NCBI GenBank assembly: GCA_945787325.1
Contig: CALZHP010000003.1
Span: forward strand, 6,070 to 70,069
DNA length: 64,000 nucleotides
Direction of reading: 5' to 3'
Origin: an uncultured Desulfobulbaceae bacterium
Lineage (GTDB): Bacteria; Desulfobacterota; Desulfobulbia; Desulfobulbales; BM004
Part shown: positions 33,919 to 50,586 of the stretch, piece after piece
How positions within the stretch are numbered: position 1 is the first letter of the stretch
How the letters are laid out: each line of letters opens with the position of its first letter
Translations under genes and position numbers: made by a program
Notes under the pieces: model-generated
The model's input: only the letters and a program-made list of their open reading frames with translations
What the model was told of the DNA's origin: nothing
Databases searched by the model: none

Positions 33919-34212
33919 TTACACACTCATTCTCATTATTTCTTTGTAAGCATCCACAATTTTATTACGCATCTGCACAAGTAGGCGCATGGAGATATCC
34001 GCTTTTTCCATAGCAATCATCACTTCATGAAGATTTTTTGATTCGCCTGTATTGAGCTTTTGGGCCGCATTGTCTGCTTTAACCTGCATTTTGTTTGTTT
34101 CATCGATAACGTTTTTCAGCGTCTCGGTAAAACCTTCCGCGGTCTTTTCTGTTTTACCGGCTTGTTGTCCGGCCATGGATTGCAGATGGTTAACAAGTGT
34201 AATATCTTTCAT
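33919..34212 (-). CDS. fliE: Hook-basal body complex protein FliE
   Basis: ...LHEVMIAMEKADISMRLLVQMRNKIVDAYKEIMRM is the FliE C-terminus. Confidence 0.85.
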   Translation of the reverse strand: MKDITLVNHLQSMAGQQAGKTEKTAEGFTETLKNVIDETNKMQVKADNAAQKLNTGESKNLHEVMIAMEKADISMRLLVQMRNKIVDAYKEIMRMSV

Positions 34213-34219
34213 GATTCAC

Positions 34220-34654
34220 CTACCTCCCTATTTCCAAGGCTTTTAGGGCCATTCTTTTGGCAGATTTAATAGTAGTTACATTAGCCTCATAAGCTCTTGT
34301 GGCAGCCATCAGGTCCGCCATTTCCTCCAGGAGATTGATGTTTGGCAGAGCAACATACCCTTTCTCATCAGCATCAGGGTGAGAAGGATCGTATATTGTC
34401 TTGGGTGGTGAATTGCTGGTAATGATTCTGGAAACTTCCACACCTTTTGCTGCACCTTTCATGCTTTGGTTCAGGTGTTTTTCAAAAGGCGGGTTATCAA
34501 CCGGCTTAAACACAACAGATTTTTTTCTGTAAGGTCCGCCATTAGGTGTACGGGTTGTTTCAATATTTGCCAGGTTAGAACTTATTGTGTTCAGCCTTAT
34601 CTGCTGGGCTTTTAGAGCTGATGAGCTTATTTTCAGTGTCTGGAAAATATCCAT
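34220..34654 (-). CDS. flgC: Proximal rod protein FlgC
   Basis: MDIFQTLKISSSALKAQQIRLNTISSNLANIETTRTPNGGPYRKK... and ...VALPNINLLEEMADLMAATRAYEANV. Confidence 0.93.
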   Translation of the reverse strand: MDIFQTLKISSSALKAQQIRLNTISSNLANIETTRTPNGGPYRKKSVVFKPVDNPPFEKHLNQSMKGAAKGVEVSRIITSNSPPKTIYDPSHPDADEKGYVALPNINLLEEMADLMAATRAYEANVTTIKSAKRMALKALEIGR

Positions 34655-34688
34655 AATTTACCTCCGATAAAATTTCTTAAGCATGCTC

Positions 34689-35105
34689 TTAGCGCCCATC
34701 CTGGGCAACATATTTCAAGAGTCCCAGTTTTTTTTTGAGCATCTGGGTTGTTGCTTCATAAAGTAATTGGTTTTCAGCAAGGGCAACCATTTCCTGGTCA
34801 ACACTCACTCCATTTCGATCACCAATACCGGTCTTGTCTGGAGTTCGTATTATTGTTCCCTGCACAGACTCTACCCCTCCACCTCCAATGTTAATGTGGG
34901 CAGGGTGTGTGGTTGTTGGTTTATTTTCTTTATTATTGACTGCACGTTGGAGTTTCTGCTCAAACTCCAGACGGGCAGGTGCATATCCGGGAGTGTCGGC
35001 GTTGGCAATGTTTGATGCAATAGTCTGCTGGTTCTGGAGTCTGAGGTCCAACACCTTCTGCAGCAGAGTCAGGGAGTTATCAAATAGATTGGCTTTTGGC
35101 ATCAT
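34689..35105 (-). CDS. flgB: Proximal rod protein FlgB
   Basis: ...LDLRLQNQQTIASNIANADTPGYAPARLEFE... and ...DQEMVALAENQLLYEATTQMLKKKL. Confidence 0.9.
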   Translation of the reverse strand: MMPKANLFDNSLTLLQKVLDLRLQNQQTIASNIANADTPGYAPARLEFEQKLQRAVNNKENKPTTTHPAHINIGGGGVESVQGTIIRTPDKTGIGDRNGVSVDQEMVALAENQLLYEATTQMLKKKLGLLKYVAQDGR

Positions 35106-38084: not shown

Positions 38085-38112
38085 TAAAGATCAGTATTCC
38101 TTTGGCCGATAT
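38085..38112 (+). promoter_or_regulatory. Sigma-28-type promoter for the che operon
   Basis: TAAA-gatcagtattcctttg-GCCGATAT with 16-nt spacing, 38 nt upstream of the cheA ATG (SD GAGG). Confidence 0.6.
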
Positions 38113-38150: not shown

Positions 38151-40721
38151 ATGAGCAAAGATATTTCTTCAGAAGACATTGAAATAATTCAAGACTTTAT
38201 CCAAGAAAGTCATGACATGCTTGATCAATTGGAACCAACGATTATTGAACTTGGTGAGAGTTGTCAAAGTGTGAACTGCTGGGAAATCCTTAAGTGTGAA
38301 AGTGATGACTGCCACCGACAAGGAAAAGAAATAGATATTCCCTGCTGGCTGCACACCGGTTATGTGGGAAACGGTCTTGGTATATGTACCCACGGCAGTT
38401 CTGAGGCCGAATGTCTGTCTTGCCAGGTCTTTGTAATGACAAACGGAGATACTGAAACAATGAACGCCATATTCCGTTTGTTTCATTCAATGAAAGGGAG
38501 TGCCGGGTTCCTTGAGTTCGACAATATTTCTCGCAGCGCGCATGCGGCTGAAAACCTGCTGGATTTGATCCGTTCCGGCAACATTCAAATGGTGCCAGAA
38601 CATGTTGATCTTCTCTGCAAAGCATGTGACTTTGCCAATGAAGCTCTCGACTACGTAGAGGAACATTTTAACGACGAAGGTATGGCTGAAAAAGCAGAAG
38701 AAATTACTTCCCTTCTTAGAGATGCTATTGAAGATGCTCAAAACAGGGCAAAATTTATTCAGGAAGATACTGTTCAACAAGGCAAGAAAAACGATACCCA
38801 TAGCTCTGATGAAAAAGCATCTGCTTCTGAAGAGTCTGAGCCAGATCAGCAGGATCTGATTGGTCCGGAAATGATAGAGACATTCGTGCTTGATGCTGAA
38901 GATTTACTCAGAAGGGTAGAGCTGAATCTTTTAAAATTAATTGAACAGCCGAGCGATGAGATCATTTTAGCAGATCTTTTCAGAGAGATGCACACTTTTA
39001 AAGGGAATTGCGGATTCCTAAACCTTGGAGACTTTGAGAGATTAAGCCACAAGGTAGAAAGTGTACTTGGGGAATATAAGGAAGGAGATGTCCTAACAGA
39101 TAGTGATTCCACTCAACTTCTCATCAATATTGTAGATACAATGCAATCTGGTGTTGCCGATTTTTCTTCTGATGGCGATGGTACAATAGATCAGTTGGAA
39201 ATGCATCTCAAGTCGTTGGACGACCTTCTTCAAAAAATAAGCAATGCCCCCCCTCCAATACCAGATGATGCACCACGCCTGGGTGAATTGCTCGTAGAAA
39301 AAGGAATTATTAATTTTGAAGATATCGAAGAGGCACTGGAAGAACAGCAGAAACCTCTTGGAGATATCTTGATTGATATGGGGAAGGTTACTCCCGAGCT
39401 GATAACAACTACTCTAAAAGAACAACATAAAATTATTTCGCAGGATGCAGATAAAAAAGGGAAACCGAAGCCAAGATCTTTACCTGTAAAACGCCAAGAC
39501 ATAAGAGTTGATCTTGAAAAGCTCGACAACCTAATAAATCTTATCGGCGAGATGGTTATCGCCGAAAACATGTTAGTTCACAACCCCGATCTGGAAGGAA
39601 TGGAGTTGGAGAACTTCAATAAGGCCGCCCAACAGATGGGTAAGCTTGTCCGTGAGCTGCAGGAGATGGCCATGATAATCAGGATGATTCCTGTGTCGGG
39701 TCTATTCAGGCGAATGATTCGTCTGGTTCACGATCTGTCTACAAAGTCTGGGAAAAAGGTAGATCTGCAGCTTGCAGGTGAAGAAACAGAGATAGATAAA
39801 ACTGTCATAGAAACAATCACGGATCCCCTTGTCCATTTGTTGCGTAATTCTTTGGACCACGGTCTAGAACCTCCGGAAGAAAGAAACAAGGCGGGAAAAC
39901 CTGAAATAGGTGTACTTATCTTGTCGGCAAGACATGAAGAAGGCGAGGTCTGGATTACCCTGGAAGATGACGGCAGGGGACTTAACCGTGAAAAGATTAT
40001 CGCAAAAGCAATAAAGAACGGATTATTAGAAGAAGAATCTCCAGATTTGAGCGACAAGGAGGTTTATAATCTTATTTTTCAGCCGGGATTTTCAACTGCT
40101 GAAGTGATAACAAATGTATCTGGCCGTGGTGTGGGGATGGATGTTGTAAAGCAGAATCTTAACAAAATAAGAGGTAAGGTTGAGGTTCAGAGTAAACCCG
40201 GACGCGGCACTAAAATAACCCTTCGTATTCCCCTTACCCTGGCTATTATCGACGGAATGCTCGTTCGCGTAGGGTTATCTAAGTGTATTCTTCCCATCCT
40301 GAATATCCGGGAGGCTTTTTGTCCAAAAAGCAGTTCGATAACAATTACCCCAGATGGTGAAGAGATTGTTCGTGTCCGGGAAAACTTTTTTCCTGTCATA
40401 AGACTTCATGAAATTCTAGGTAAAGAACCGGACTGTATGGAGCTTGAGAAAGGAATTCTGATTGTTCTTGAGTATCAGGACAATAGCGCCTGCCTGTTCG
40501 TGGATGAAATAATGGGGCAGCAGCAGACGGTTATTAAGGGGTTGTCAGATTATATTGGCAGCATTCCAGTTATTTCAGGTTGTACTATCCTCGGCAACGG
40601 GCAAGTCTGTCTCATTCTTGACACTGGTAACCTGGTTGAACTGAAAGAAGGAAGTGAGCATGCCGCTGCACTGCAGGAACTGGCCCAACAACAAAGTGCG
40701 GCCGAACAGGCTGCTAATTAA
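38151..40721 (+). CDS. cheA: Chemotaxis histidine kinase CheA, non-canonical: Hpt(with Cys-rich insert)-Hpt-MshEN-like-P3-P4-P5
   Basis: It carries two Hpt phospho-His boxes, FRLFHSMKGSAGF (H112) and FREMHTFKGNCGF (H281). The dimerisation segment is DIRVDLEKLDNLINLIGEMVI. The HATPase region has the N box HLLRNSLDHG, G1 DDGRG and G2 GRGVGMD. The C-terminus is CheW-like. Confidence 0.93.
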   Translation: MSKDISSEDIEIIQDFIQESHDMLDQLEPTIIELGESCQSVNCWEILKCESDDCHRQGKEIDIPCWLHTGYVGNGLGICTHGSSEAECLSCQVFVMTNGDTETMNAIFRLFHSMKGSAGFLEFDNISRSAHAAENLLDLIRSGNIQMVPEHVDLLCKACDFANEALDYVEEHFNDEGMAEKAEEITSLLRDAIEDAQNRAKFIQEDTVQQGKKNDTHSSDEKASASEESEPDQQDLIGPEMIETFVLDAEDLLRRVELNLLKLIEQPSDEIILADLFREMHTFKGNCGFLNLGDFERLSHKVESVLGEYKEGDVLTDSDSTQLLINIVDTMQSGVADFSSDGDGTIDQLEMHLKSLDDLLQKISNAPPPIPDDAPRLGELLVEKGIINFEDIEEALEEQQKPLGDILIDMGKVTPELITTTLKEQHKIISQDADKKGKPKPRSLPVKRQDIRVDLEKLDNLINLIGEMVIAENMLVHNPDLEGMELENFNKAAQQMGKLVRELQEMAMIIRMIPVSGLFRRMIRLVHDLSTKSGKKVDLQLAGEETEIDKTVIETITDPLVHLLRNSLDHGLEPPEERNKAGKPEIGVLILSARHEEGEVWITLEDDGRGLNREKIIAKAIKNGLLEEESPDLSDKEVYNLIFQPGFSTAEVITNVSGRGVGMDVVKQNLNKIRGKVEVQSKPGRGTKITLRIPLTLAIIDGMLVRVGLSKCILPILNIREAFCPKSSSITITPDGEEIVRVRENFFPVIRLHEILGKEPDCMELEKGILIVLEYQDNSACLFVDEIMGQQQTVIKGLSDYIGSIPVISGCTILGNGQVCLILDTGNLVELKEGSEHAAALQELAQQQSAAEQAAN

Positions 40722-40915
40722 CGGGAAATGACCAATTAGAAATCAATTGAAGCAGGCTTAAGTCAATCAGTTTGGGGAAGTACTTAATTTAAAATCAATG
40801 GAATAACTGATAGACAGCTGTAGCCGAGAATTCAGGGGGGGAGGACCCCCAAATGCATTATTGTGGTCGTTCAGAAAAACTGCAATAAATGCGTAAAATT
40901 CAAGGGAGGATTTCG

Positions 40916-41710
40916 ATGAGTAAAAGAGTTATGAAATTGTTTTTTGTTACTATGAGTTTGGTCCTGTTTTTTTCCTATTCCGCAAATGCTGCAGAGGTCC
41001 TGTTGTGGGGGTCAACTACCTGTCAGAAGCGTTTTCTGGAGCCTGGCAAGGAAGCGCTCAATAATGCTACAGGAGTTAACATCAAGGTTTTTGGGGTTGG
41101 TACAGGTAAGGGAATGCTTGCCCTTTTTGAAGGAAAGACCAATGTGGCAATTTCTTCGAATACCTTGGATGAGAGTGTTAAATCCGCCCAGAAGGTTCGA
41201 AAAAAAACAGGCAAGGAGCCTGTGGAAGTGCCAGAAGGACTTCAGTATCATGAGATAACCAAAGACGTCATTGTCCCTATAGTACACAAAGAAAACACTG
41301 TCAATAAACTGAGCTGGGAACAGCTGGCAGATCTGAACACCGGTAAAATCACCAACTGGAAAGATGTCGGTGGCCCAGATATGTCTGTTCAGGTTGTAAC
41401 AAGCCATGCCGGCAGTTCAACAAAAGCAGTATTCCGGAAGATGGTCATGAAGAAGGCAGAGTATGATGCCGGTGCAATCGAGGTAAAAAGCACCAGGTTG
41501 GAGATAAACAAAGTATCCAAAAATAAAGGTGGTGTAGGTGCTGTCAGTAGCGGTTTTCATACGCTGAATCCCGGCAAAACAAAAGTAGTTGAAACAAACA
41601 CGATTCAGAGACCTCTCGGTCTTGTAACAATTGGTGATCCGGCTCCTGATGTACAGAAAATAATTGATTTTTTTCGTTCAGCAGAAGGCAAGAAACATAT
41701 ACTAGATTAA
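40916..41710 (+). CDS. Periplasmic substrate-binding protein, PstS/PBP-like-2 family
   Basis: Signal peptide ...LVLFFSYSANA|AE, then ...LLWGSTTCQKRFLEPGKEAL...IKVFGVGTGKGMLALFEGKTNVAISSNTL..., the pattern of phosphate-type type-2 binding proteins. There is a strong SD (GGGAGGA) before the ATG at 40916. Confidence 0.8.
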   Translation: MSKRVMKLFFVTMSLVLFFSYSANAAEVLLWGSTTCQKRFLEPGKEALNNATGVNIKVFGVGTGKGMLALFEGKTNVAISSNTLDESVKSAQKVRKKTGKEPVEVPEGLQYHEITKDVIVPIVHKENTVNKLSWEQLADLNTGKITNWKDVGGPDMSVQVVTSHAGSSTKAVFRKMVMKKAEYDAGAIEVKSTRLEINKVSKNKGGVGAVSSGFHTLNPGKTKVVETNTIQRPLGLVTIGDPAPDVQKIIDFFRSAEGKKHILD

Positions 41711-41911: not shown

Positions 41912-44356
41912 ATGAAGAATAGTTGGAAGCTAAACATTCAGGAGAAATTGATCGGTGGTTTCGGCATTGTTGCGTTTGTATGCGCTACTGTGGGCTATGT
42001 CGGGTGGTATGGGGCTTCTAAATTAGAAGAAAATATCGTTGTAACCGGTGAAGTCAGTGTACCTTCTTTGCAGGCAGTAATGAACCTTAAAGAAGCGCAG
42101 CTTTCTATTAAGGCATCTGGGCGAACTCTTCTTAACCCATCTCTTTCAGTTGAAAATAAGGCTAAAGAATACGCGGATATTGATGCCGCTTTCTCAAGGG
42201 CAAACAGCGCGCTTGAAATGTACGAAGCCCTTGACATCGATGGTAGTGAGAAAGCTTTGTGGCAAAATTTTCTGGCCAGCTGGAGTGAATGGAAAATGAG
42301 TATTGAAAATTTTATTACTCTCAGCAAGAAGAATGATGCATTAAATATCCACAACCCCCAAAAACTGATCAGCGATATAGAGAGAAATTTTGGTGAATAC
42401 AGAACCTGGGCCGCTGAAAGTGTAAAAGCTGTCCTCGAAAACAGTGAATTCTCAGGTAACCTGGACCCGGATAAATCACCCTTCGGGATATGGTTGTCAT
42501 CACTACAGGTCGATAACCAGGTTGTTCAGGAAGCTGTCATCAAACTAAAAAATCAGTTGATCAGTGTATATTCTTCGGTTGGTTCAATTGCAGATTTTTT
42601 ATCAATTGAAGAATATGAACTGGCCAAGGAAGTATATGTTTCAGAGGTGCTGCCAAGTATAGAAAGTATTCAGATCTATGTAGATAACCTCATGGCACCT
42701 ATTGAAGAATCCCTGGATCTATATGAGGAGATGGCTGTTTATGAGCGTGAAACCTTCTCAATATCACTGGCAAAAACAGAAAAACTCTTGAATCAGGTTG
42801 TGATGAAGACCAACGCAAAAGTCGCGGAAGATGTGAATGAAGGCCGTGCATTTGCTGGTAATATTACAATGGCTCAAATTGTTGTGGCAATGCTTGGTGC
42901 AATAGCAGCTTTTGTGTTTGGTTTTTTTCTTGCCCGCCATATAATTATTCCCATTAAAAAGGCTATTGGTGTTATAAGCAAGCTTTCACAGGGTAATACA
43001 GATGTGACTATGCCGGTTGGCAAATTTTTTAATTGTTCTGAAGAGAAAAAATGCGGTCATGAGGATTGTCCAAGTTATGGCAAAGTTGACCCCTGCTGGG
43101 TAACAAGTGGTTCTTTTGCGGCAATAAAACATTGTCCTCGAGCGAAAAGCGGTGAAGATTGCCGCTCATGTAATTTGTATGGCAAGCGCACTGAACTTGA
43201 AGAGCTGGGTTCAATTATCATGGCATTATCAAATATTATAAAAGAACGGGAAAATCTGGCGCTTGCAATTGCCGAGGGTGATCTGAATAAAGAAGTGGAA
43301 GTTGCATCTGACAATGATACACTCGGCAAAGCTCTCAAATTGATGCAGGATAGTCTCAGCGATATTATCGGCAAGGTCCAAATGGCGGGAGAGCAAATAG
43401 CTAACGGTTCTACTCAGATTTCCGGTTCCAGCCAGTCTCTTTCTGAAGGAGCGACCAAGTCTGCTGCGTCGCTTGAAGAGATGACCACGTCCATGTCGCA
43501 AATGGGCACGCAAACCAAGCGAACCGCCAAGCACGCAATTGAGGCTAATGATCTTTCCGAACAATCCAAAAATGCTGCCGAGGATGGTAATCAGCGAATG
43601 GCCGACATGGTTGAAGCCATGAAACAGATAAGTGCATCCAGCCAGAGTATCTCAAAGATAATAAAAGTGATTGATGAGATCGCTTTTCAGACAAATCTAC
43701 TTGCTTTGAACGCGGCTGTGGAAGCTGCGCGAGCAGGGCGGCATGGCAAAGGTTTTGCAGTAGTGGCTGAAGAGGTAAGGAACCTTGCTGCGCGAAGTGC
43801 CAAAGCTGCGCGGGAAACAGCTGACTTAATAGAGGGGTCAGTAAAAAGAACTGATAATGGTGCTGAAATAGCAGGTAAAACTGAGGATGCCCTGTTGGAT
43901 ATAGTGGGCAAAACCTCAAAGGTGTCTGACATTGTTGCAGAAATAGCGTCATTGTCTAACCAGCAGGCCCAGGGGATAGATCAGGTAAATTTGGGTTTGG
44001 AGCAGGTGGATAAAGTTACCCATGAAAATACAACCACTGCTGAAGAAGGAGCAGCCGCCGCTGAAGAGTTGTCCTCCCAGGCAAATCACCTGTATAATAT
44101 GTTACGGCATTTCAAACTTAAGGAAAATTATCGGAATAAAATCAGGACTGAACAGCCACAGCAATTAGAACCTTTAGAGGAGGTTCGGAATAATGACCAT
44201 AATGAACAGCCGCAGCTGATTGAACCTGTAAAGAAGGCGGTTGAAACATGGGGTGTGAATAGCGAGGAACCTGAAGAAAGTAATGAGTTTAAAGATGAAC
44301 CCCGTTTTCAGGATGATTTTATAGCGTTGGATGATAACGAATTTGGTAAGTACTAA
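41912..44356 (+). CDS. Methyl-accepting chemotaxis protein with a Cys-rich module inserted in its HAMP domain
   Basis: It has TM1, a periplasmic region of about 290 aa, and TM2 ([24 protein letters not shown]). The split HAMP is followed by a signalling domain, ...[44 protein letters not shown]... The C-terminus is a long acidic tail. Confidence 0.93.
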
Positions 44357-44485
44357 TTATATAGCGGAAGTGAACAACATAATTTAATAATAATGCTACA
44401 TAAGTCAAAGGATCGTAAACCATGAATATAAAGTGATTGTAGACTTAATATTCGATTATGCAGGACATGTTTGAGAGGAGTAAAT

Positions 44486-45010
44486 ATGGTGCAATATACC
44501 AGGGACGAAATGTTGGATGATGATTTTTACGGTGAAGATGAAGATACCCAGAAGGGAAAATTTTTAACATTTCACATGGCGAATGAGGATTATGGAATAG
44601 AGATCAAACATGTTACTGAAATAATTGGAATTCAAAATGTTACGGAAGTGCCGGATATGCCGGACTATGTCCGTGGTGTTATCAATCTGCGCGGCAAAGT
44701 AATACCCATAATGGATGTGCGTACCAGGTTCAAACTTCCCCCCCGGGAATACGACGAGCGCACCTGCATCATTGTTGTCAACATTGATGATAAGTCAGTG
44801 GGACTTGTAGTAGACAAGGTGAATGAGGTCGCGGATATTCCCGATGACCAGATAGAACCGCCTCCCAGGACAAAAAGAGAGGGAGGAGGGTATATCCAGG
44901 GTATGGGTAAGATTGACGAGGAAGTCAAGATACTGCTGGACGTCACTAAGCTACTTTATGAGGATGAACTTGAAGAGCTTGATGCCGTGTCCCAGAATTC
45001 CTCTGAGTAG
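44486..45010 (+). CDS. cheW: Coupling protein CheW
   Basis: ...FLTFHMANEDYGIEIKHVTEIIGIQNVTEVPDMPDYVRGVINLRGKVIPIMDVR... Start at MVQYT, with SD GAGGAG. Confidence 0.9.
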   Translation: MVQYTRDEMLDDDFYGEDEDTQKGKFLTFHMANEDYGIEIKHVTEIIGIQNVTEVPDMPDYVRGVINLRGKVIPIMDVRTRFKLPPREYDERTCIIVVNIDDKSVGLVVDKVNEVADIPDDQIEPPPRTKREGGGYIQGMGKIDEEVKILLDVTKLLYEDELEELDAVSQNSSE

Positions 45011-45149
45011 TAAAAGCAGTAATATATGTTCGTAAAATTGATTATGACAACTTTATAGGTTTGTCATTTATTTCAACTCATATCAATGTTAGAATGTCAC
45101 TATTATTCACAAAGATTGCGGACACTTGTTGTCTGAAAAGCTGAACGGT

Positions 45150-45992
45150 ATGAATGGATATCTGCTTAGCATTTCAGACGAAGAATTCCAATTAATGCGC
45201 TCTTTGATCTATGAGCGTTTCGGTATCAATCTCACCGAACAAAAACGTTCGCTGTTGATCGGGCGTCTCCAGAAGATAATCAAAACATCTGGATTTCATT
45301 CTTTTCAACAGTATTACGAACACATAATTAATTCCCAGAACGAACAGGCCCTCAGTAATCTGATTGACCGTGTTTCAACCAATCATACTTATTTCTACAG
45401 AGAGAAAGACCATTTTGATTACTTTCTTCAAACCGCATTGCCTAATGTCGTATCAAGACTAGAAGCAAAAGGTTCCCGAGAATTGCGAGTGTGGTGCGCC
45501 GGATGCTCGTCAGGTGAAGAACCTTATATGATTCTCATGCTGATGCAGAAATACTTTGGTATGGATTATTTGAAATGGGATGCAGGAGTTTTAGCCACTG
45601 ATATCTCTTTGAGAGCACTGAATACTGCTAAGGCAGGGATTTATAATCAGGAAAAAATCGATATGATTCCTGAGGAGCTCGTAAGTAAACATTTTTATAA
45701 GAGTGGCAAAAGTGAGTGGGTCGTAAAAGATTCATTAAAGAAAGAGGCTACCTTCCGCCGATTTAATTTAATGAATAGTCATTTTCCTTTTAAGAAGCCA
45801 TTTCAAATAATTTTCTGCAGGAATGTGATGATTTATTTTGATCAGCCGACCCGGGACAATCTTGTGAAAAAATTTTATCAATTCACGGATCCGGGTGGAT
45901 ATTTTTTTATCGGCCACTCAGAATCTCTAGGCCGTAGCCATGATCACTACCAATATGTAAAACCGGCCGTTTATCAGAAGAGGTATAAGTAG
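45150..45992 (+). CDS. cheR: Chemoreceptor methyltransferase CheR
   Basis: ...FQLMRSLIYERFGINL... and the SAM-binding VWCAGCSSGEEPY ...IFCRNVMIYFD. The start is uncertain (ATG at 45150 or TTG at 45126). Confidence 0.9.
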   Translation: MNGYLLSISDEEFQLMRSLIYERFGINLTEQKRSLLIGRLQKIIKTSGFHSFQQYYEHIINSQNEQALSNLIDRVSTNHTYFYREKDHFDYFLQTALPNVVSRLEAKGSRELRVWCAGCSSGEEPYMILMLMQKYFGMDYLKWDAGVLATDISLRALNTAKAGIYNQEKIDMIPEELVSKHFYKSGKSEWVVKDSLKKEATFRRFNLMNSHFPFKKPFQIIFCRNVMIYFDQPTRDNLVKKFYQFTDPGGYFFIGHSESLGRSHDHYQYVKPAVYQKRYK

Positions 45993-47054
45993 ATGCTTAA
46001 AAAAATACGTGTTCTTGTTGTTGATGATTCTTTGCTTGTCAGGCAAGTACTTACCAAGGGACTTTCCGCTGATCCAGCTATAGAAGTTGTTGGAGCTGCT
46101 GAAGATCCATATGTTGCCAGGGATAAGATTGTGGAGCTGAAGCCCGATGTCCTGACCCTGGATGTGGAGATGCCCCGCATGAACGGTGTTGATTTCCTTC
46201 GCCGACTAATGGCCCAGCGGCCCATGCCGGTTGTTATGGTAAGTTCTCTTACACAGAAAGGACAAAAAGTTACACTTGATGCTCTGGAGGCGGGTGCAGT
46301 GGATTTCGTTTCCAAACCATCTGTATCCGGTATCAGTGGACTAAGTGGGATGCTGACAGAGTTGCGGGTTAAGGTAAAAACAGCAGTTACGGCAAATCTT
46401 CTTCAGCTCAAAGAGAAAAAAGAACGGGCTCCTCAAGAATCGGTTTCTAAGGACAATGTTAGAGCACTTGCAGAGCTGGCTGGAAAAGTAGTTGCGATAG
46501 GAGCATCGACCGGTGGAACTGAAGCTTTAAATACAATTTTATCGCAGTTTCCGGCAACTATGCCGGGTGTTGTTGTTGTTCAGCATATGCCACCAGGATT
46601 CACCAAGATGTTTGCAGAAAACTTGAATAATGCCTGTGCTATGAAAGTGAAGGAAGCGGAAACAGGTGACAGAATAATGTCTGGACGTATCCTCGTTGCA
46701 CCGGGAGGTGTGCAGACTAAGGTAGTAGAAAAAGGGGGTGTCCTGCAGGTCTCTTGCGGTTCTTCGGAAAAGGTAAGCGGTCATTGCCCTTCTGTAGATG
46801 TAATGATGCAATCAGTAGCAGAAAGCGTTGGGGCAGATGCTGTTGGAGTCATGCTGACTGGAATGGGTAATGATGGTACCAAAGGAATGCTTGCCATGAA
46901 AAATGCCGGAGCTAAAAATATGGCTCAGGATGAAGCATCTTCAGTTGTTTTCGGTATGCCTAAACAGGCTTATGAGGCTGGAGGTGCAAAAGCACTTGTC
47001 CCCCTTAATAGGATATCGGCTAAAATTATCAGTTTTCTCCTGGAGAAACGTTAG
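45993..47054 (+). CDS. cheB: Chemoreceptor methylesterase/response regulator CheB
   Basis: REC domain (VLVVDDS..., DVLTLDVEMPRMNG) plus an esterase domain (IGASTGG..., ...HMPPGFT..., ...GMGNDG). Confidence 0.94.
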   Translation: MLKKIRVLVVDDSLLVRQVLTKGLSADPAIEVVGAAEDPYVARDKIVELKPDVLTLDVEMPRMNGVDFLRRLMAQRPMPVVMVSSLTQKGQKVTLDALEAGAVDFVSKPSVSGISGLSGMLTELRVKVKTAVTANLLQLKEKKERAPQESVSKDNVRALAELAGKVVAIGASTGGTEALNTILSQFPATMPGVVVVQHMPPGFTKMFAENLNNACAMKVKEAETGDRIMSGRILVAPGGVQTKVVEKGGVLQVSCGSSEKVSGHCPSVDVMMQSVAESVGADAVGVMLTGMGNDGTKGMLAMKNAGAKNMAQDEASSVVFGMPKQAYEAGGAKALVPLNRISAKIISFLLEKR

Positions 47055-47539
47055 TGAGCGGAACCTTTCTAGGAATCGGCGATTATGCCGTCTCAAATGA
47101 GGCAGACTCCGTGTTGAAAACGTACCTTGGTTCTTGTGTTGCGGTTATCCTGCTTGATCCTATAACACGAACCGTTGGTATGGTGCACATAGCTCTGCCG
47201 GATTCAAGTCTAGATCCATCTAAGAAGGAATTATTACCTGGGTATTTTGCAGACTCAGGTATTGCTGTTCTTTTCAACAAGATGAAAGAGTACGGCTTCA
47301 GTGAAAAAAGCCATAAACTTATTGTAAAACTGGTGGGAGGGGCATCGGTAATGTCTCAATGTGATGTTTTTAACATTGGATTAAGAAATGTTGAGGCTGC
47401 AAAAAGTATACTGAAATCCATGGGTTTACATATATCATCAGAAGATGTTGGAGAGAAATACAGCAGATCTGTTGCCATTGAGGTGGATACAGGAAAGGTA
47501 ACTGTAAGCAGCCCAGGTCGCGGCCAGTGGGATATATGA
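47054..47539 (+). CDS. cheD: Chemoreceptor glutamine deamidase CheD
   Basis: ...LKTYLGSCVAVILLDP...GMVHIALP... with catalytic Cys/His contexts. It overlaps the cheB stop. Confidence 0.88.
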   Translation: MSGTFLGIGDYAVSNEADSVLKTYLGSCVAVILLDPITRTVGMVHIALPDSSLDPSKKELLPGYFADSGIAVLFNKMKEYGFSEKSHKLIVKLVGGASVMSQCDVFNIGLRNVEAAKSILKSMGLHISSEDVGEKYSRSVAIEVDTGKVTVSSPGRGQWDI

Positions 47540-47549
47540 GGTAGAAAGT

Positions 47550-48416
47550 ATGAACAAGAAACTTGTTAATAAAGAAATCATGATTGCTATCAAAAGCGCA
47601 CCGCTTCTTTCTCCAAGCGTTTATGATATTATAAGAAAAATAGCAGAACCTGACCACAGCCTGGCTGATGTGGTCAAGATTGTGAAGCATGATTCCGCAC
47701 TTACAGCAAGATTATTGAGGGTAGTTAACTCAGCGGCTTTTGCGACGTTAGATCCGGTTAATTCTGTTGACCGGGCTATATCATTACTTGGAGAACGTAT
47801 GGTTGTCGGTTTGGCTATATCAGAAAGTACAGGTAATTTATTCCATAAACCTCTAGAGGGCTACGATGGCAAAAAAGGTGACCTTTGGAGTCATGATCTT
47901 ATTGTTGCTTATGCAACAAGAAAAATAGCGGGACTAGCTAAGATTAATATCGATCCCGAACTGGCATTTACCGGTGGGTTATTACATGATATCGGCAAGG
48001 CGATTATTTCCGATTTTCTAAAAGGAACTGCGGAGGAGTTACTGCAGAGTATTGATAAAGGTCATGTCGATGATTATGCCTCGGCCGAAAAAAATTTCCT
48101 GGGAGTCAACCACCAGGCGGTGGGTTACGAACTTGCCATGAACTGGAATTTACCTGAATCAATCCAACAGATGATCCTCCATCACCACAGCCCTGCCGAA
48201 TCGGATGATGAGTTCAAACCTTATGTTTATGCAGTTCATTTAGGAGATATTATATCAATGATGTCCGGATTTGGTACCGGCACAGATATTATGCAATATA
48301 ACCTGGACCAGGGATATGAAGAGTATTTTAATCTTAAATTTGAATCGATAGCATCTGTAATGCTGGAAATTAAGGATAAATGTAAAAGAGTAATTGGGGT
48401 GGAGGACTGCATGTAG
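47550..48416 (+). CDS. HDOD domain protein
   Basis: ...ADVVKIVKHDSALTARLLRVVNSAAF... and ...GGLLHDIGKAIIS... are HDOD hallmarks. Confidence 0.8.
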   Translation: MNKKLVNKEIMIAIKSAPLLSPSVYDIIRKIAEPDHSLADVVKIVKHDSALTARLLRVVNSAAFATLDPVNSVDRAISLLGERMVVGLAISESTGNLFHKPLEGYDGKKGDLWSHDLIVAYATRKIAGLAKINIDPELAFTGGLLHDIGKAIISDFLKGTAEELLQSIDKGHVDDYASAEKNFLGVNHQAVGYELAMNWNLPESIQQMILHHHSPAESDDEFKPYVYAVHLGDIISMMSGFGTGTDIMQYNLDQGYEEYFNLKFESIASVMLEIKDKCKRVIGVEDCM

Positions 48417-48496
48417 ATCCATTTAACGTTCTTAATATGATCGGTATCTGCATTTATTTAGCTGTAATTATACGTCAACCATAGGCGGAGGTAAGC

Positions 48497-48868
48497 ATGG
48501 GTAAGAAGGTATTAATTGTTGATGATTCAAGCACTATGCGTAAGATCGTAACCAGGTGCCTGAGACAGGCGGGTCTGGAGTTCGAAGAGGTACTGGAAGC
48601 AGGAGACGGCCAGGAAGCCCTCCAGGTTCTTCAGGGTGCAAAAGTGGATCTTATTTTAAGCGACATAAATATGCCCAATATGGATGGTTTGGCATTCCTC
48701 AAGGAAAAAGCAGGTAATGATGCAATCAAAGACATTCCTGTGGTTATGATATCAACTGAAAGTGGGGACGATATTGTAACTGAAGCCAAAAAATTGGGTG
48801 CTGCAGGCAGTATAAAGAAACCATTTACGCCAGATCAGGTCAACGAGACAATAATGCCGTTAATATAG
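48497..48868 (+). CDS. cheY: Response regulator CheY
   Basis: KVLIVDDSSTMRKI..., DLILSDINMPNMDG, ...VVMISTE..., ...IKKPF. All canonical receiver residues are present. Confidence 0.93.
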   Translation: MGKKVLIVDDSSTMRKIVTRCLRQAGLEFEEVLEAGDGQEALQVLQGAKVDLILSDINMPNMDGLAFLKEKAGNDAIKDIPVVMISTESGDDIVTEAKKLGAAGSIKKPFTPDQVNETIMPLI

Positions 48869-48887
48869 ACTTGATAAGGTAGTATAC

Positions 48888-49346
48888 ATGGTTGAACCAC
48901 AAGAGTTGATTAGCTTCACCCAAGAAATATTCTCTACGATGATCATGATGGATGTAAGGCCGGGTGAACCTATTACAGGAAAATATGAGTTTTTTCAATC
49001 TTCCATTACCGGTATGGTTGGTCTGGCAGGGAAATATAAAGGAATGATCGCTATTCATGTTCCCGACAATGTAGCAAAAACGATAACAGGAAACTTTCTT
49101 GGCTGTGGTGTTGAAGAGATTAATGAAGATGTCCATGATGCAATTGGAGAGCTAGCGAATATGTTAGGAGGTAGCATAAAAGCCTGCTTAGCTGAATCCA
49201 GTAAAGATATCGAGCTTTCATTGCCTACTACTGTTTTAGGGATGCAATATTCCCTGCAGAGTCAGGATGATGTTAAGGTTATGACAATTCCTTTCAGCGT
49301 TGAAGGTGGTGAGTTTCTGGTTGAAATACAGTTGCAAGAAAAATAA
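48888..49346 (+). CDS. cheX: CheX-type CheY-P phosphatase (CheC/CheX/FliY family)
   Basis: A single active-site motif, D-x3-E-x2-N (DAIGELANMLGG), followed by a Pro about 22 residues later. CheX-like size (152 aa). Confidence 0.8.
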   Translation: MVEPQELISFTQEIFSTMIMMDVRPGEPITGKYEFFQSSITGMVGLAGKYKGMIAIHVPDNVAKTITGNFLGCGVEEINEDVHDAIGELANMLGGSIKACLAESSKDIELSLPTTVLGMQYSLQSQDDVKVMTIPFSVEGGEFLVEIQLQEK

Positions 49347-49446
49347 TTACTGATTGATATGATGTTTAATAATGTCAAATATACAAATCGAGTTCAATAA
49401 CTTTATAAGTAGCGACATTATAATCATGGCTTCATAATAGGAGACA

Positions 49447-50586
49447 ATGAAAGCAAGGGAGACAATTGATAACACACTGGATGCGGCGAAATTGCATCTA
49501 CAGAAAGAAGTTGGTGATCTTCTTGGACACAAAGTCAGTCTATCAGATCCCAGGGGCCGCTTCATTTCCAAGGTGAACTTTTTTTCAAGATTCGAAAGTA
49601 AAAACGTTCTTGTCAAATTTGAGGTAAGTGGTGAACTGGAAGGGATTATATATCTTAATTTTTCTATGAAAGATGCTATTACACTTGGCGGTACGCTCAT
49701 AATGCTTCCCGATGCTGAACTGGAGGCACACATCTCTAAAGGTGAATTTGGTGAGGATGAAGCAGATGCATTTGGTGAAATAACAAATATCATTTGCGGT
49801 CTCTACACGAAAAGTTTTACTGAGCAATTTCCCCAAAAAATCCATTTTAAAAAAACGGACCTTGTAGTTTTCCAACCATCTGAAATAGATATTGATTCTC
49901 CCGACCCTATTCCGGACGTAGGTTACTATTTGGTATCTTTTCCAATGGTTCTCGGGGAAAAACAACTTGGTGAATTTGATACCCTATTTCCTGCAGAATT
50001 GTTCGGAATGGAGTTTGTTGAAGAACAAGGCGTCGCAGAGAAAGTTCAGGGTGAAGAGGGTGAAAAGCAGGCGGAACCAGCGGCTTCAGATGATGGGATA
50101 ACAGAGTCCCCGCCGACTGATGTTGGAGCATCAGAAACTGAACTGGGGGCTCCTGCAGCCCAGGAAGATGCAGCAGTGACTCCTGCTCAAGACGTAAGCG
50201 CTTCTGCTGCAATAAATCAGGAAAGCACCCGAGTGATCATACTTGCAGATGAAGTCCAGGACGCTCAACCCTTTATGAGTACACTTCAGGAATGCGGGTT
50301 CGAGCCGAATATTATGAATTTTAATGATAATATAAAGGATGTTGTCGCCCAGGGAGTACGCGGAATTTTTATTATCTTGAACGAAGTGAACGAGCAGGGT
50401 ATGGCGGCTCTAATAAAAATAAGCTCAGCCTGTAGTGGTGGTTATCCACTTGTAATAGCAGGGCCGGAATGGACGCGAAAAACTGTTATGCAGGCTGTTA
50501 AATATGGTGCCTGTGACATAGTTATGACCCCGGCGTCACCTGATGAAATAAAAGGAAAAATTTGCCAGCACTTCGGAAGCGTCTAA
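49447..50586 (+). CDS. CheC-like domain - acidic linker - degenerate receiver (pseudo-REC) fusion protein
   Basis: A D-x3-E-x2-N motif is present (DAFGEITNIICG, codons 107-114). A Glu/Ala/Pro-rich linker of about 70 aa follows. The C-terminal 120 aa have a REC fold pattern (VIILADE..., GIFIILNEVN, PLVIAGP, DIVMTP), but Asn, Ala/Gly and Thr replace the phospho-Asp, Thr/Ser and Lys. Confidence 0.65.
   Translation: MKARETIDNTLDAAKLHLQKEVGDLLGHKVSLSDPRGRFISKVNFFSRFESKNVLVKFEVSGELEGIIYLNFSMKDAITLGGTLIMLPDAELEAHISKGEFGEDEADAFGEITNIICGLYTKSFTEQFPQKIHFKKTDLVVFQPSEIDIDSPDPIPDVGYYLVSFPMVLGEKQLGEFDTLFPAELFGMEFVEEQGVAEKVQGEEGEKQAEPAASDDGITESPPTDVGASETELGAPAAQEDAAVTPAQDVSASAAINQESTRVIILADEVQDAQPFMSTLQECGFEPNIMNFNDNIKDVVAQGVRGIFIILNEVNEQGMAALIKISSACSGGYPLVIAGPEWTRKTVMQAVKYGACDIVMTPASPDEIKGKICQHFGSV

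Follow-up and report, generated by a model that had tools for sequence, protein, structure and literature searches.

A divergent two-CW-like module predicted within the first P1 domain of a Desulfobulbaceae CheA

The CheA kinase encoded in a 64,000-nucleotide stretch of an uncultured Desulfobulbaceae genome (the window) carries a cysteine-rich insert in its first P1 (Hpt) domain, between helix A and the helix of the phospho-acceptor histidine. Profile comparisons place this insert, as a divergent member, in the two-CW superfamily, represented in NCBIfam by NF045718. The explanation that we favor, with moderate confidence, is that a cofactor-binding two-CW domain was grafted into P1, where it would modulate phosphotransfer.

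Results

The cheA locus

The features of the locus are collected in Table 1. Pfam detects two Hpt domains, H-kinase_dim, HATPase_c, and CheW in CheA, and the MshEN-like motif pair is matched by NF053729 (54.7 bits; cutoff 38). The candidate promoter upstream of cheA resembles the sigma-28 (FliA) consensus; its pattern occurs once in the whole window, against 0.06 matches expected from shuffled sequences. Synteny of the chemosensory operon was compared with 80 related loci. The closest CheA proteins, which share 57-60% identity over the whole protein and 65% over P1, are found mostly in Desulfuromonadales MAGs and in some Desulfobulbales.

Table 1. Features of the cheA and MCP region, in window coordinates.
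Feature	Position	Strand	Description
sigma-28 (FliA)-like candidate promoter	38085..38112	+	TAAA-N16-GCCGATAT; 39 nt upstream of cheA ATG
cheA	38151..40721	+	856 aa; P1a (with insert) - P1b - MshEN-like c-di-GMP motif - P3 - P4 - P5; P2 absent
P1a helix A	38169..38258	+	aa 7-36; AlphaFold2 model, pLDDT >90
Whole inserted stretch	38259..38453	+	aa 37-101; from alignments against insert-less orthologues (3-4 residues at the same place)
Two-CW-like module proper	38277..38432	+	aa 43-94: C43 W44 C49 C54 C65 W66 G70 C79 C88 C91 V93 F94; invariant in 41 orthologues
P1a helix B with phospho-acceptor H112	38451..38510	+	aa 101-120; H112 codon 38484-38486; sequence and AlphaFold2
Second Hpt domain P1b	38862..39155	+	about aa 238-335; H281 in FREMHTFKG with K284/H300/E303; no insert; Pfam
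MshEN-like c-di-GMP-binding motif pair (predicted)	39276..39425	+	aa 376-425: RLGELLVEKGIINFEDIEEALEEQ ... PLGDILIDMGKVTPELITTTLKEQ
P3, P4, P5 of CheA	39495..40640	+	P3 dimerisation aa 449-509, P4 HATPase_c 558-696, P5 CheW-like 702-830; Pfam
Periplasmic-binding-protein-like gene (PBP_like_2)	40889..41710	+	between cheA and MCP
MCP	41912..44356	+	814 aa; TM1 - 4HB - TM2 (aa 318-343) - predicted HAMP enclosing the module - second HAMP-like - MCPsignal
MCP HAMP AS1 and proximal connector (predicted)	42941..43033	+	aa 344-374
MCP module copy	43034..43171	+	aa 375-420
MCP HAMP AS2 (predicted)	43190..43249	+	aa 427-446
Rest of chemosensory operon	44471..49346	+	cheW, cheR, cheB, cheD, HDOD, cheX

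An insertion between helices A and B of P1

The region that first drew attention (38262-38426) encodes C38 to Q92 of CheA. Our own translation is identical to that of the original prediction in its cysteine and tryptophan pattern and in the position of the phospho-acceptor, with C38, C43-W44, C49, C54 (followed by H55), C65-W66, C79, C88, and C91, and with H112 in FRLFHSMKGSAGF. Eight of the 17 cysteines of CheA fall within 54 residues, which has a binomial probability of about 2e-7 given the cysteine density of the remaining protein. Helix A and the phospho-histidine helix had been described as separated by extra residues, and the orthologue alignments bear this out, placing about 61 additional residues between them. 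In close insert-less orthologues the sequence is ...IIELGQ-NSDS-ETMNAIFRLFHSMKG, 4 residues taking the place of the 65 (aa 37-101) of the window CheA, and the short A-B turn of P1, 3-4 residues long in such orthologues, is absent from the window protein. By these alignments, the stretch is a true and clean insertion.

The comparison set comprised 41 orthologous insert-bearing CheA proteins from other genomes, mostly Desulfuromonadales, with identities down to ~44%. The original prediction had named cysteines unconserved among homologues as grounds for abandoning it; all seven cysteines of the module and both tryptophans are kept in 41 of the 41 inserts. Together with L67 and G70, these residues (C43, W44, C49, C54, C65, W66, C79, C88, and C91) are invariant, while most other positions vary. 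Outside the cysteines, conservation is found at W, G, R56, and VF, and H55 is poorly conserved, the commonest residues at its position including P (15), S (10), H (5), and L (3). C38, which had been counted with the module, is missing from some insert-bearing orthologues (P0001, L022, L029, and L032) and retained in the insert-less orthologues P0236 and P0245 (ELGQSCQDASGDPETINA), and therefore lies outside it.

Many syntenic CheA orthologues lack the insert entirely. As these insert-less proteins are common and nested among the insert-bearing ones, P1 evidently works without the module, which appears from this distribution to have been lost repeatedly from CheA.

A divergent relative of the two-CW domain

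Among NCBIfam models, NF045718 was the sole match to the CheA insert, scoring 18.8-19.9 bits against a curated cutoff of 35, and Pfam gave no match to the module. The NF045718 match covers the whole model, from position 2 to 78 of 80, and 36 of the 41 CheA inserts match it at E <= 0.01. The best of these (E 8.1e-6) still falls well short of ~2e-8, our estimate of the E-value equivalent to 35 bits, which is reached by 43 of 48 classical modules. Since the scores stay below the curated cutoff, annotation pipelines miss the insert, and NCBI names the proteins that carry it plainly as 'chemotaxis protein CheA'.

In a comparison between profiles with hhalign, the CheA inserts aligned to bona fide two-CW modules with 98.9% probability (E 1.2e-17, 62 columns), and an HMM built from CheA inserts only gave each of the 140 other modules 24.5-50.8 bits, with a mean of 41 bits for classical modules versus 33 bits for the MCP type. 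Two Cys-Trp dipeptides (C43-W44 and C65-W66) stand in a multi-cysteine skeleton whose columns align one by one with those of classical members. Shared between the two are the pattern C(W)-x5-C-x4-C(P)-x8-10-CW ... C ... C-x2-C-x-[VL]-[YF] and a conserved glycine four residues past the second CW. The differences are that inserts of the CheA lineage do not conserve the CP after the third cysteine, which MCP and classical members have; that the fifth cysteine, C79, lies 14 residues past C65, leaving the classical GTxC position (8 after the second CW cysteine) unoccupied; and that the module is hosted by the Hpt A-B loop, not by a HAMP connector or soluble linker. The RefSeq label "two-CW", suggested in the original prediction, thus pointed to the right superfamily, although the insert does not reach the curated cutoff of the model that bears this name.

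Literature and structure searches yielded neither a publication nor a solved structure for any member of the two-CW family. Sequence and profile searches of the PDB with the module returned no relative, only a Pex12 RING fragment (E 0.22), and no relevant paper emerged from literature searches on the two-CW domain, on Cys-rich HAMP domains or Fe-S sites of chemoreceptors, or on insertions in the Hpt domain of CheA.

Hosts of the module

An exhaustive HMMER profile search recovered 229 cluster representatives (50% identity clusters) carrying the module; a word-index homologue search with a 6-sequence module alignment gave no matches. Among 148 hosts scanned, 64 contained MCPsignal, about 26 HisKA/HATPase, 16 GGDEF, 4 HD_5, and 5 Hpt domains, often along with PAS, GAF, or Cache domains. 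This range of signalling proteins fits a sensory or input role for the module. The named hosts are anaerobic lineages, and 5 of the host MCPs have CZB as a separate domain.

The usual site of the module is the HAMP connector, in most cases with a TM segment and AS1 upstream and DEIxxLGxxFNxM downstream. When the module was deleted in silico, 8 of 10 hosts regained a Pfam HAMP match that crossed the junction. Four of these spliced proteins reached 42-52 bits over positions 2-52 of 53, and the spliced window MCP 23.5 bits (gathering threshold 25) over positions 1-42 of 53. Going by this survey, the module is widespread in the signalling proteins of anaerobes and is a promiscuous cytoplasmic unit, typically found inside the HAMP connector and hence between two HAMP helices. 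The P1 loop of CheA is, on the same grounds, a rare second host site, of which we found no description in the literature, and the CheA-type and MCP-type subfamilies are ones that escape current annotation models.

The number of conserved cysteines had been put at seven. This holds for the 41 CheA inserts, but across the family only six are invariant, as the fifth shifts or is occasionally missing. The span from the fourth to the sixth cysteine stays at about 21 residues while the fifth moves between subfamilies, behavior that would be typical of a ligand supplied by a flexible loop.

The copy in the neighboring MCP

The same pattern had been reported in the adjoining MCP. We recovered its seven-cysteine skeleton, shared with CheA, at the position given in Table 1, though with only the second CW, the first being C-S; NF045718 does not match this copy. 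Both copies have the same spacing class for the fourth to sixth cysteines (12-13 and 8), and both are predicted to interrupt a signalling domain of the helical-bundle kind, between two of its helices, in proteins of the same operon. MCP copies differ from those of CheA in usually having C-S for the first C-W, and in their strong CP motifs. In addition, the helices of HAMP run parallel and helices A and B of Hpt antiparallel, which would require a different geometric coupling.

Recent transfer of the module between CheA and MCP within the operon was rejected, as the two copies share 31% identity and each groups in its own subfamily. The signals for the origin of the CheA copy conflict: the spacing of its fifth cysteine is MCP-like, while the CheA-only HMM favors classical modules. 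A module-bearing MCP within 8 kb of an insert-bearing cheA was found only in the window and at one other locus (L010). As most insert-bearing cheA operons have no such MCP nearby, a dedicated CheA-MCP pairing is not general.

Predicted structure and the P1 active site

AlphaFold2, run on P1 plus the insert with a 65-row alignment, gave a mean pLDDT of 96 and a pTM of 0.90, with the insert at 92-97; with a 7-sequence alignment, the pLDDT of the insert stayed below 50. The structure prediction proposed at the outset thus yields an insert that is modeled as confidently folded on an undisturbed P1 bundle. The modeled insert is loop-rich and without beta-hairpins, with short helices (43-46, 65-68, 85-89, and 92-98) that start at or beside cysteines. 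Compared with solved CheA P1 structures (1I5N, 3KYJ, and 8C5V), the P1 model has target-normalised TM scores of 0.84-0.88.

The host domain itself looks conventional. P1 matches Pfam Hpt with 76.6 bits (cutoff 24.6), and contains HxxKG. In sequence, the spacing of H112/K115/H131/E134 is identical to that of H48/K51/H67/E70, the corresponding network in E. coli CheA; on this basis, the P1 active-site network is intact. As in the canonical P1 domains of E. coli/Salmonella (1I5N) and T. maritima (1TQG), a five-helix bundle is combined with HxxKG and the H/K/H/E spacing; in contrast, 65 residues replace the short canonical turn between helices A and B. A published survey of CheA architectures describes CheA as lacking an input domain and contains no Hpt-nested domain among its entries (PMC10782961).

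Candidate cofactors

The cysteines most likely ligate a metal cofactor, either an Fe-S cluster or zinc, as far as can be judged from their pattern. A c-type heme site, its CxxCH form already dismissed in the original prediction, was ruled out: there is no CxxCH, H55 is present in 5 of 41 orthologues, and CheA is cytoplasmic, with no signal peptide seen by eye. C49-x4-C54-H55 does literally fit the rare CX4CH variant of heme-c sites. CZB and known zinc-finger families were likewise set aside, as none of their profiles matches the module. For the 48 classical modules, Pfam returned only isolated weak matches, to SWIM in 1 and to DUF2769 in 6 (best E 0.019).

Cysteine-ligated Fe-S sensors include FNR, NreB, WhiB-like proteins, and the Rrf2 regulators NsrR, IscR, and RirA, with loops of the C-x5-C-x5-C type. 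Like these, the module combines a close cluster of cysteines in a loop (C-x5-C-x4-C) with one or more distal putative ligands, has aromatic residues beside them, and is found in regulators of anaerobes. It differs from them in that no homology of sequence or fold was detected, in having six or seven cysteines rather than three or four, with a cofactor that is putative, and in being nested in a helical bundle instead of terminal or PAS-embedded.

A second possible analogy is CZB (PF13682), which may be likened to the module as a cytoplasmic metal-thiolate unit of chemotaxis proteins. In H. pylori TlpD, CZB is reported to be such a unit, through which redox or metal state controls the kinase (PMC6715182). 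CZB, however, folds as a four-helix bundle, and its Zn site is of the 3His/1Cys type.

Discussion

According to the explanation that we favor, the module would be a compact fold of ~55 residues, stabilised by its six or seven cysteines, which would ligate a metal cofactor. In the HAMP connector, the state of this cofactor would change helix packing. In the present CheA lineage, the module would have been grafted into the loop between helices A and B of the first P1, with its last helix (aa 92-98) predicted to run nearly straight into helix B, three turns before H112. Occupancy or oxidation state of the cofactor, set by redox conditions, O2/NO, or metal availability, could then alter packing on this end of the P1 bundle, and thereby modulate either the phosphorylation of H112 by P4 or the passage of the phosphoryl group from H112 to CheY/CheB. 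Parallel routes may be provided by the second Hpt (H281), which is unmodified, and by the operon's module-bearing MCP. A regulatory effect on phosphotransfer is, in our view, a reasonable inference.

More tentatively, the proposal can be taken further: CheA of this lineage may have a built-in Fe-S or Zn-thiolate input, responsive to redox, O2/NO, or metal, that is nested in P1 and directly gates either the phosphorylation of H112 or the transfer from it. The input would then be the first Hpt-embedded sensor domain, and the two-CW domain could be a general 'helix-clamp' sensor that drives HAMP and Hpt domains from their loops.

Somewhat unlikely, in our judgement, is a purely structural role, in which a knot of zinc or another metal serves as a rigid spacer or as a docking surface for array partners or localisation, and senses nothing. 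Small cysteine-rich domains are often structural, many orthologues have a working P1 without the module and have apparently lost it repeatedly, AlphaFold2 was confident without a cofactor, and beyond W, G, R56, and VF no conserved non-cysteine pocket residues are evident. However, the hosts are almost exclusively signal-transduction proteins, and an inert spacer would be hard to explain in the preferred HAMP connector, which is mechanically critical. Six or seven invariant cysteines also exceed the need of one structural Zn site.

We consider it improbable that the module is instead a metal-free or zinc-thiolate redox switch, working by reversible disulfide formation or oxidant-triggered Zn release to report oxidative stress, without an Fe-S cluster. 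RsrA, Hsp33, and the CZB domain of TlpD are examples of such switches. The module has a high cysteine density and a CxxC pair (C88/C91), and the taxis of its anaerobe hosts could plausibly be guided by the avoidance of oxidants. A Cys-Zn switch in a chemoreceptor also has a published precedent in TlpD (PMC6715182). Against this, the module shows no sequence similarity to CZB or ZAS motifs, nor any Pfam match, and the invariance of six or seven cysteines with adjacent aromatics better fits a multi-ligand cofactor site.

Finally, that the cysteine pattern arose by chance, from low complexity, or as an annotation or assembly artefact (a frameshift or mobile insertion) is barely conceivable: only the NCBIfam score below the cutoff speaks for it, and against it stand an insert that is in frame and conserved in 41 related loci of other genomes, homology to about 230 cluster representatives, a confident AlphaFold2 fold, and the improbable cysteine density.

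The natural pairs of CheA orthologues with and without the module offer ready controls for experiments on the favored explanation, a cofactor-binding two-CW domain acting on P1. The two-CW domain has so far been only a name in curated databases; its hosts, its nesting, and its subfamilies are now described. Among histidine kinases, CheA is the textbook case of one that has no sensor of its own and receives its input from chemoreceptors (PMC10782961). If a module of the cofactor-binding type does act three helical turns from H112, some chemotaxis pathways would integrate an intracellular signal at the phosphotransfer step itself, perhaps one that reflects redox, oxygen, or metal status.

A cysteine-rich insert in CheA

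Translation of the window's cheA gene, which gave only partial matches to the NCBIfam CheA equivalogs, reproduced exactly the residues listed in the original prediction: cysteines at positions 38, 43, 49, 54, 65, 79, 88 and 91, tryptophans at 44 and 66, and the phospho-acceptor histidine H112 in FRLFHSMKGSAGF. A stretch of 54 residues holds 8 of the 17 cysteines of CheA (binomial P ~2e-7 against the cysteine density elsewhere in the protein). A six-frame scan of the window found the cysteine pattern at just one further site, in the MCP encoded two genes downstream, where it had indeed been predicted, except that the first CW reads CS. The second Hpt domain carries no insert, and two Hpt domains are also present in insert-less CheA orthologues. 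H112, K115, H131 and E134 of the first domain share the spacing of H48, K51, H67 and E70 in Escherichia coli. Both P1 domains (H112, H281) look competent. This CheA lacks a receiver domain, and its gene lies in a flagellar neighbourhood.

Features of the window around cheA
Feature	Position	Strand	Remarks
fliE, flgC, flgB look-alikes	33919-35105	-	by eye
Sigma-28 (FliA)-like promoter	38085-38112	+	TAAA-N16-GCCGATAT; 39 nt upstream of cheA
cheA	38151..40721	+	856-aa ORF; Pfam: Hpt (two stretches), H-kinase_dim, HATPase_c, CheW
Cys-rich stretch of CheA	38262-38426		C38 to Q92
Second Hpt (P1b) of CheA	38862-39155		~aa 238-335; complete; H281, K284, H300, E303
Tandem MshEN-type c-di-GMP-binding motif of CheA	39276-39425		aa 376-425; RLGELLVEKGIINFEDIEEALEEQ / PLGDILIDMGKVTPELITTTLKEQ; NF053729, 54.7 bits vs cutoff 38
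PBP_like_2 (PstS-like periplasmic binding protein) gene	40889-41710	+	N-terminal hydrophobic segment
MCP copy of the module	43034-43171		aa 375-420
HDOD protein, CheX, 379-aa protein with weak CheX-like N-terminal region	47550-50586	+	
Sigma-54 activator with receiver domain	50613-52088	-	convergent to operon

In a comparison based on the N-terminal 173 residues of the window CheA, close homologues fell into two groups, with and without the cysteine-rich stretch. Insert-less proteins read ...IIELGQ-NSDS-ETMNAIFRLFHSMKG, with 4 residues in place of the 65 (aa 37-101) of the window CheA, which bears out the predicted excess of about 65 residues between helix A and the phospho-His helix. A scan for related loci, with one genome per species, returned 80 loci, 42 of which encode a CheA with the insert. 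These are mostly from Desulfuromonadales, and include Geothermobacter hydrogeniphilus HR-1, Desulfuromonas sp. CSMB_57, and MAGs of Trichloromonas, 'Pelobacter', Geoalkalibacter and Syntrophotalea; the insert is absent from the remaining loci, among them those of Desulfuromusa kysingii and Malonomonas rubra. Both states share the same operon synteny, a divergent TPR gene and then cheA-cheW-cheR-cheB-cheD-HDOD-...-cheX.

Conservation was assessed over 41 insert sequences including that of the window, to which they are 44-57% identical. All seven cysteines of the module are invariant (C43, C49, C54, C65, C79, C88 and C91), as are W44, W66, L67, G70, N98 and G99, while R56, P64, G75, V93 and F94 are nearly so and the other positions are mostly free to vary. 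The additional C38 of the prediction is not part of the module, since it is missing from some insert-bearing CheAs and kept in the insert-less homologues P0236 and P0245 (ELGQSCQDASGDPETINA). A rough, approximate neighbour-joining tree, built on the part of CheA that follows the insert, placed the insert-bearing proteins as basal and paraphyletic, with insert-less ones nested among them several times. Because of this nesting, and because P0236 and P0245 still carry the flanking 'ELGQSCQ', the tree suggests, as a lead only, that the module was acquired by CheA long ago and then precisely lost on repeated occasions, rather than gained once.

Relationship to the two-CW superfamily

No Pfam model matches the module. 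The sole NCBIfam match to the window insert was NF045718, 'two-CW domain', the label mentioned in the original prediction; the match runs over the whole length of the model (positions 2-78 of 80), yet at 18.8-19.9 bits it falls short of the cutoff of 35. NF045718 was matched at E <= 0.01 by 36 of the 41 CheA inserts (best E 8.1e-6). In NCBI records, the insert-bearing proteins are named plainly 'chemotaxis protein CheA'.

When a profile of five CheA inserts and the MCP copy was run exhaustively with HMMER against 1.84 billion cluster representatives, 229 proteins matched at E <= 1e-3. Common to them all is the skeleton C1(W/S)-x5-C2-x4-C3-x8-10-C4W ... C5 ... C6-x2-C7-x-[VL]-[YF], which comes in two spacing classes. 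C5 follows the second CW by 12-13 residues and precedes C6 by 8 in CheA and most MCP copies; in the 'classical' class (GTFCxGxVQGxFAxKxxDCxxCxVY), the two distances are 7 and 14. Despite this 'migration' of C5, the C4-to-C6 span is constant at ~21 residues family-wide. Since C5 is missing or elsewhere in a few classical members, six cysteines appear to form the family-wide invariant core, with the seventh as a class-specific ligand candidate.

The classical members P0026, P0120 and P0166 scored 47-93 bits against NF045718, and 43 of 48 classical modules matched it at E <= 2e-8, an estimated ~35-bit cutoff, which marks classical members as bona fide two-CW domains. When a profile of the 41 CheA inserts was compared with one of the 48 classical modules, the match had 98.9% probability (E 1.2e-17, 62 aligned columns), and an HMM built from CheA inserts only scored all 140 other modules at 24.5-50.8 bits. 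The CheA insert thus shares the two CW, the cysteine skeleton and profile-level homology with NF045718, but scores below its curated threshold and has C5 off the classical position. For these reasons, we regard it as a divergent subfamily of the two-CW superfamily that is missed by the curated model, rather than a called member. The original prediction thus proved right about both the family and the insertion.

In 6 of the 48 classical modules there was weak similarity, below threshold, to Pfam DUF2769, another uncharacterised cysteine-rich family (best E 0.019); a distant relationship between the two is possible. Several GGDEF, MCP and other hosts (P0026, P0038, P0041, P0166, P0168) carry two tandem classical modules, at the C-terminus of an MCP in P0166, and P0120 and P0132 are stand-alone module-only proteins of 71-77 aa. 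The prediction that this is not a heme-c site held, as the stretch contains no CxxCH; a literal CX4CH (C49...C54-H55) is not conserved.

Host proteins and nesting in HAMP connectors

The module is a promiscuous module of signal-transduction proteins. A Pfam scan of 148 hosts found MCPsignal in 64, HisKA/HATPase_c in ~26, GGDEF in 16 and HD_5 (HD-GYP type) in 4, with PAS, GAF and Cache domains frequent among them. In the window MCP, the module follows TM2 (aa 318-343) and lies between AS1-like and AS2-like helices. A TM segment occurs at most 75 residues upstream of 95 of 149 modules, and a DE[IL]xxLGxxFNxM-type AS2 directly downstream of 85 of 149 by a strict regular expression; by eye, AS2 follows in nearly all TM-linked hosts. 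When the module was excised in silico from ten hosts, Pfam HAMP was matched across the junction in eight, in four of them at 42-52 bits and over profile positions 2-52 of 53. The window MCP reached 23.5 bits against a threshold of 25, and the two soluble hosts gave no Pfam HAMP match after excision. The TM/AS2 context and the HAMP matches restored by excision show that the usual place of the module is within the HAMP connector.

A second host site, occupied only rarely (~3-5% of clusters; 5 of 148 hosts with Hpt), is the helix A-helix B loop of CheA P1. The 447-aa JGI protein P0029 has an Hpt-like N-terminus with a nested module of shortened C5-C6 spacing, but diverges after FRLFHTVKG into a PF09839-annotated region and is therefore not a CheA; a unit of P1 and module may thus exist outside CheA.

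Predicted structure

AlphaFold2 with seven sequences gave a good helical bundle, with residues 41-82 at pLDDT <50. With a deeper alignment of 65 rows, in which HAMP-type and classical modules were added in the insert columns, aa 1-198 were modelled at a mean pLDDT of 96 and pTM of 0.90, and the insert at 92-97. The modelled insert has no beta-strands and consists of short helices at 43-46, 65-68, 85-89 and 92-98, each beginning at or beside a cysteine; the last is predicted to join helix B (101-120) via G99-D100. A Foldseek search of the PDB returned CheA P1 domains (2LP4, 1I5N, 3KYI/3KYJ, 8C5V, 2LD6, 1TQG). Because TM-scores for isolated P1 chains were high when target-normalised (0.80-0.88) and ~0.56 when query-normalised, the model indicates an intact P1 bundle with the module as an excursion from it; the target-normalised score to the larger P1-CheY/P2 entry 2LP4 was 0.51. 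A PDB sequence search found no solved structure related to the module (best match E 0.22).

Operon context and a possible second CheA input

The MshEN-type motif lies between the second Hpt and P3, the usual place of P2, and scored 73 bits against NF053729 in the full-length homologue P0024. Wang et al. 2016 (PMC5013675) had earlier listed an association of MshEN with CheA. With this motif besides the insert, the window CheA may take two intracellular inputs.

The predicted sigma-28-like promoter is the window's sole match, where 0.06 would be expected, and is consistent with a chemotaxis operon of the flagellar regulon. The PBP_like_2 gene is placed between cheA and the MCP gene. Since cheW directly follows cheA in most orthologous operons, the PBP and MCP pair has the look of a receptor cassette that was inserted here, and might serve to sense a ligand indirectly via the periplasmic 4HB domain of the MCP. 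No cheY was found among operon ORFs of at least 150 aa, the size class covered downstream of 44 kb.

Possible function and cofactor

The module is modelled with confidence as a compact domain, and six or seven of its cysteines are invariant. Its hosts are almost only signalling proteins, and in nearly every case it interrupts a helical-bundle transducer between two helices. In CheA, a very short link connects it to the helix of the phospho-acceptor histidine, about three turns from that residue. We propose that the cysteines ligate a cofactor, whose presence or oxidation state would set the conformation or rigidity of the module and thereby change how the helices on either side of it pack. In a HAMP host, the signalling state would be biased as a result. 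In P1, helix A/B would dock differently on the ATP site of P4 or on CheY/CheB, so that phosphorylation of H112, or phosphotransfer from it, would be gated. The second, unmodified Hpt (H281) could give an ungated route, and the operon's MCP would respond to the same cue at the level of the receptor.

We lean slightly towards an Fe-S cluster, to which we give a roughly even chance, over zinc or a Zn-thiolate switch, which is somewhat less probable. The invariant cysteines outnumber the needs of one zinc site, and the C-x5-C-x4-C loop resembles the cluster loops of Rrf2 regulators. CP motifs occur in MCP and classical members, the putative ligands are flanked by aromatic residues, and the predicted fold consists of loops and short helices only, with no zinc-knuckle hairpins. 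Finally, the named hosts belong to anaerobic lineages (Desulfuromonadales, Thermodesulfobacteriota, Nitrospirae MAGs, marine sediment). None of these reasons is decisive, and a thiol or Zn-thiolate oxidant switch is a rival that would be a variant of the same sensing model with another cofactor. An inert structural knot or docking surface would be compatible with repeated loss of the insert, but fits poorly with a module that is restricted to signalling proteins and sits in the mechanically critical HAMP connector. Conservation, homology and fold rule out a chance or artefactual origin of the cysteine pattern.

A survey of CheA architectures, which describes CheA as lacking an input domain, documents duplications, loss of P2, fusions to REC and to CheC/CheX, and an insertion of 50 aa in a CheW domain of Desulfobacteraceae, but makes no mention of a domain nested in Hpt or of cysteines (PMC10782961). 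No publication on the two-CW domain, or on a cysteine-rich insert in HAMP, came up in our literature search. New here are the occurrence of a known, though uncharacterised, domain at a previously undescribed host site, CheA P1, and the generalisation that the two-CW domain is typically HAMP-nested. A sensor-like domain inside P1 would surprise a chemotaxis specialist, and the natural orthologues with and without the insert make the question of its function directly testable.
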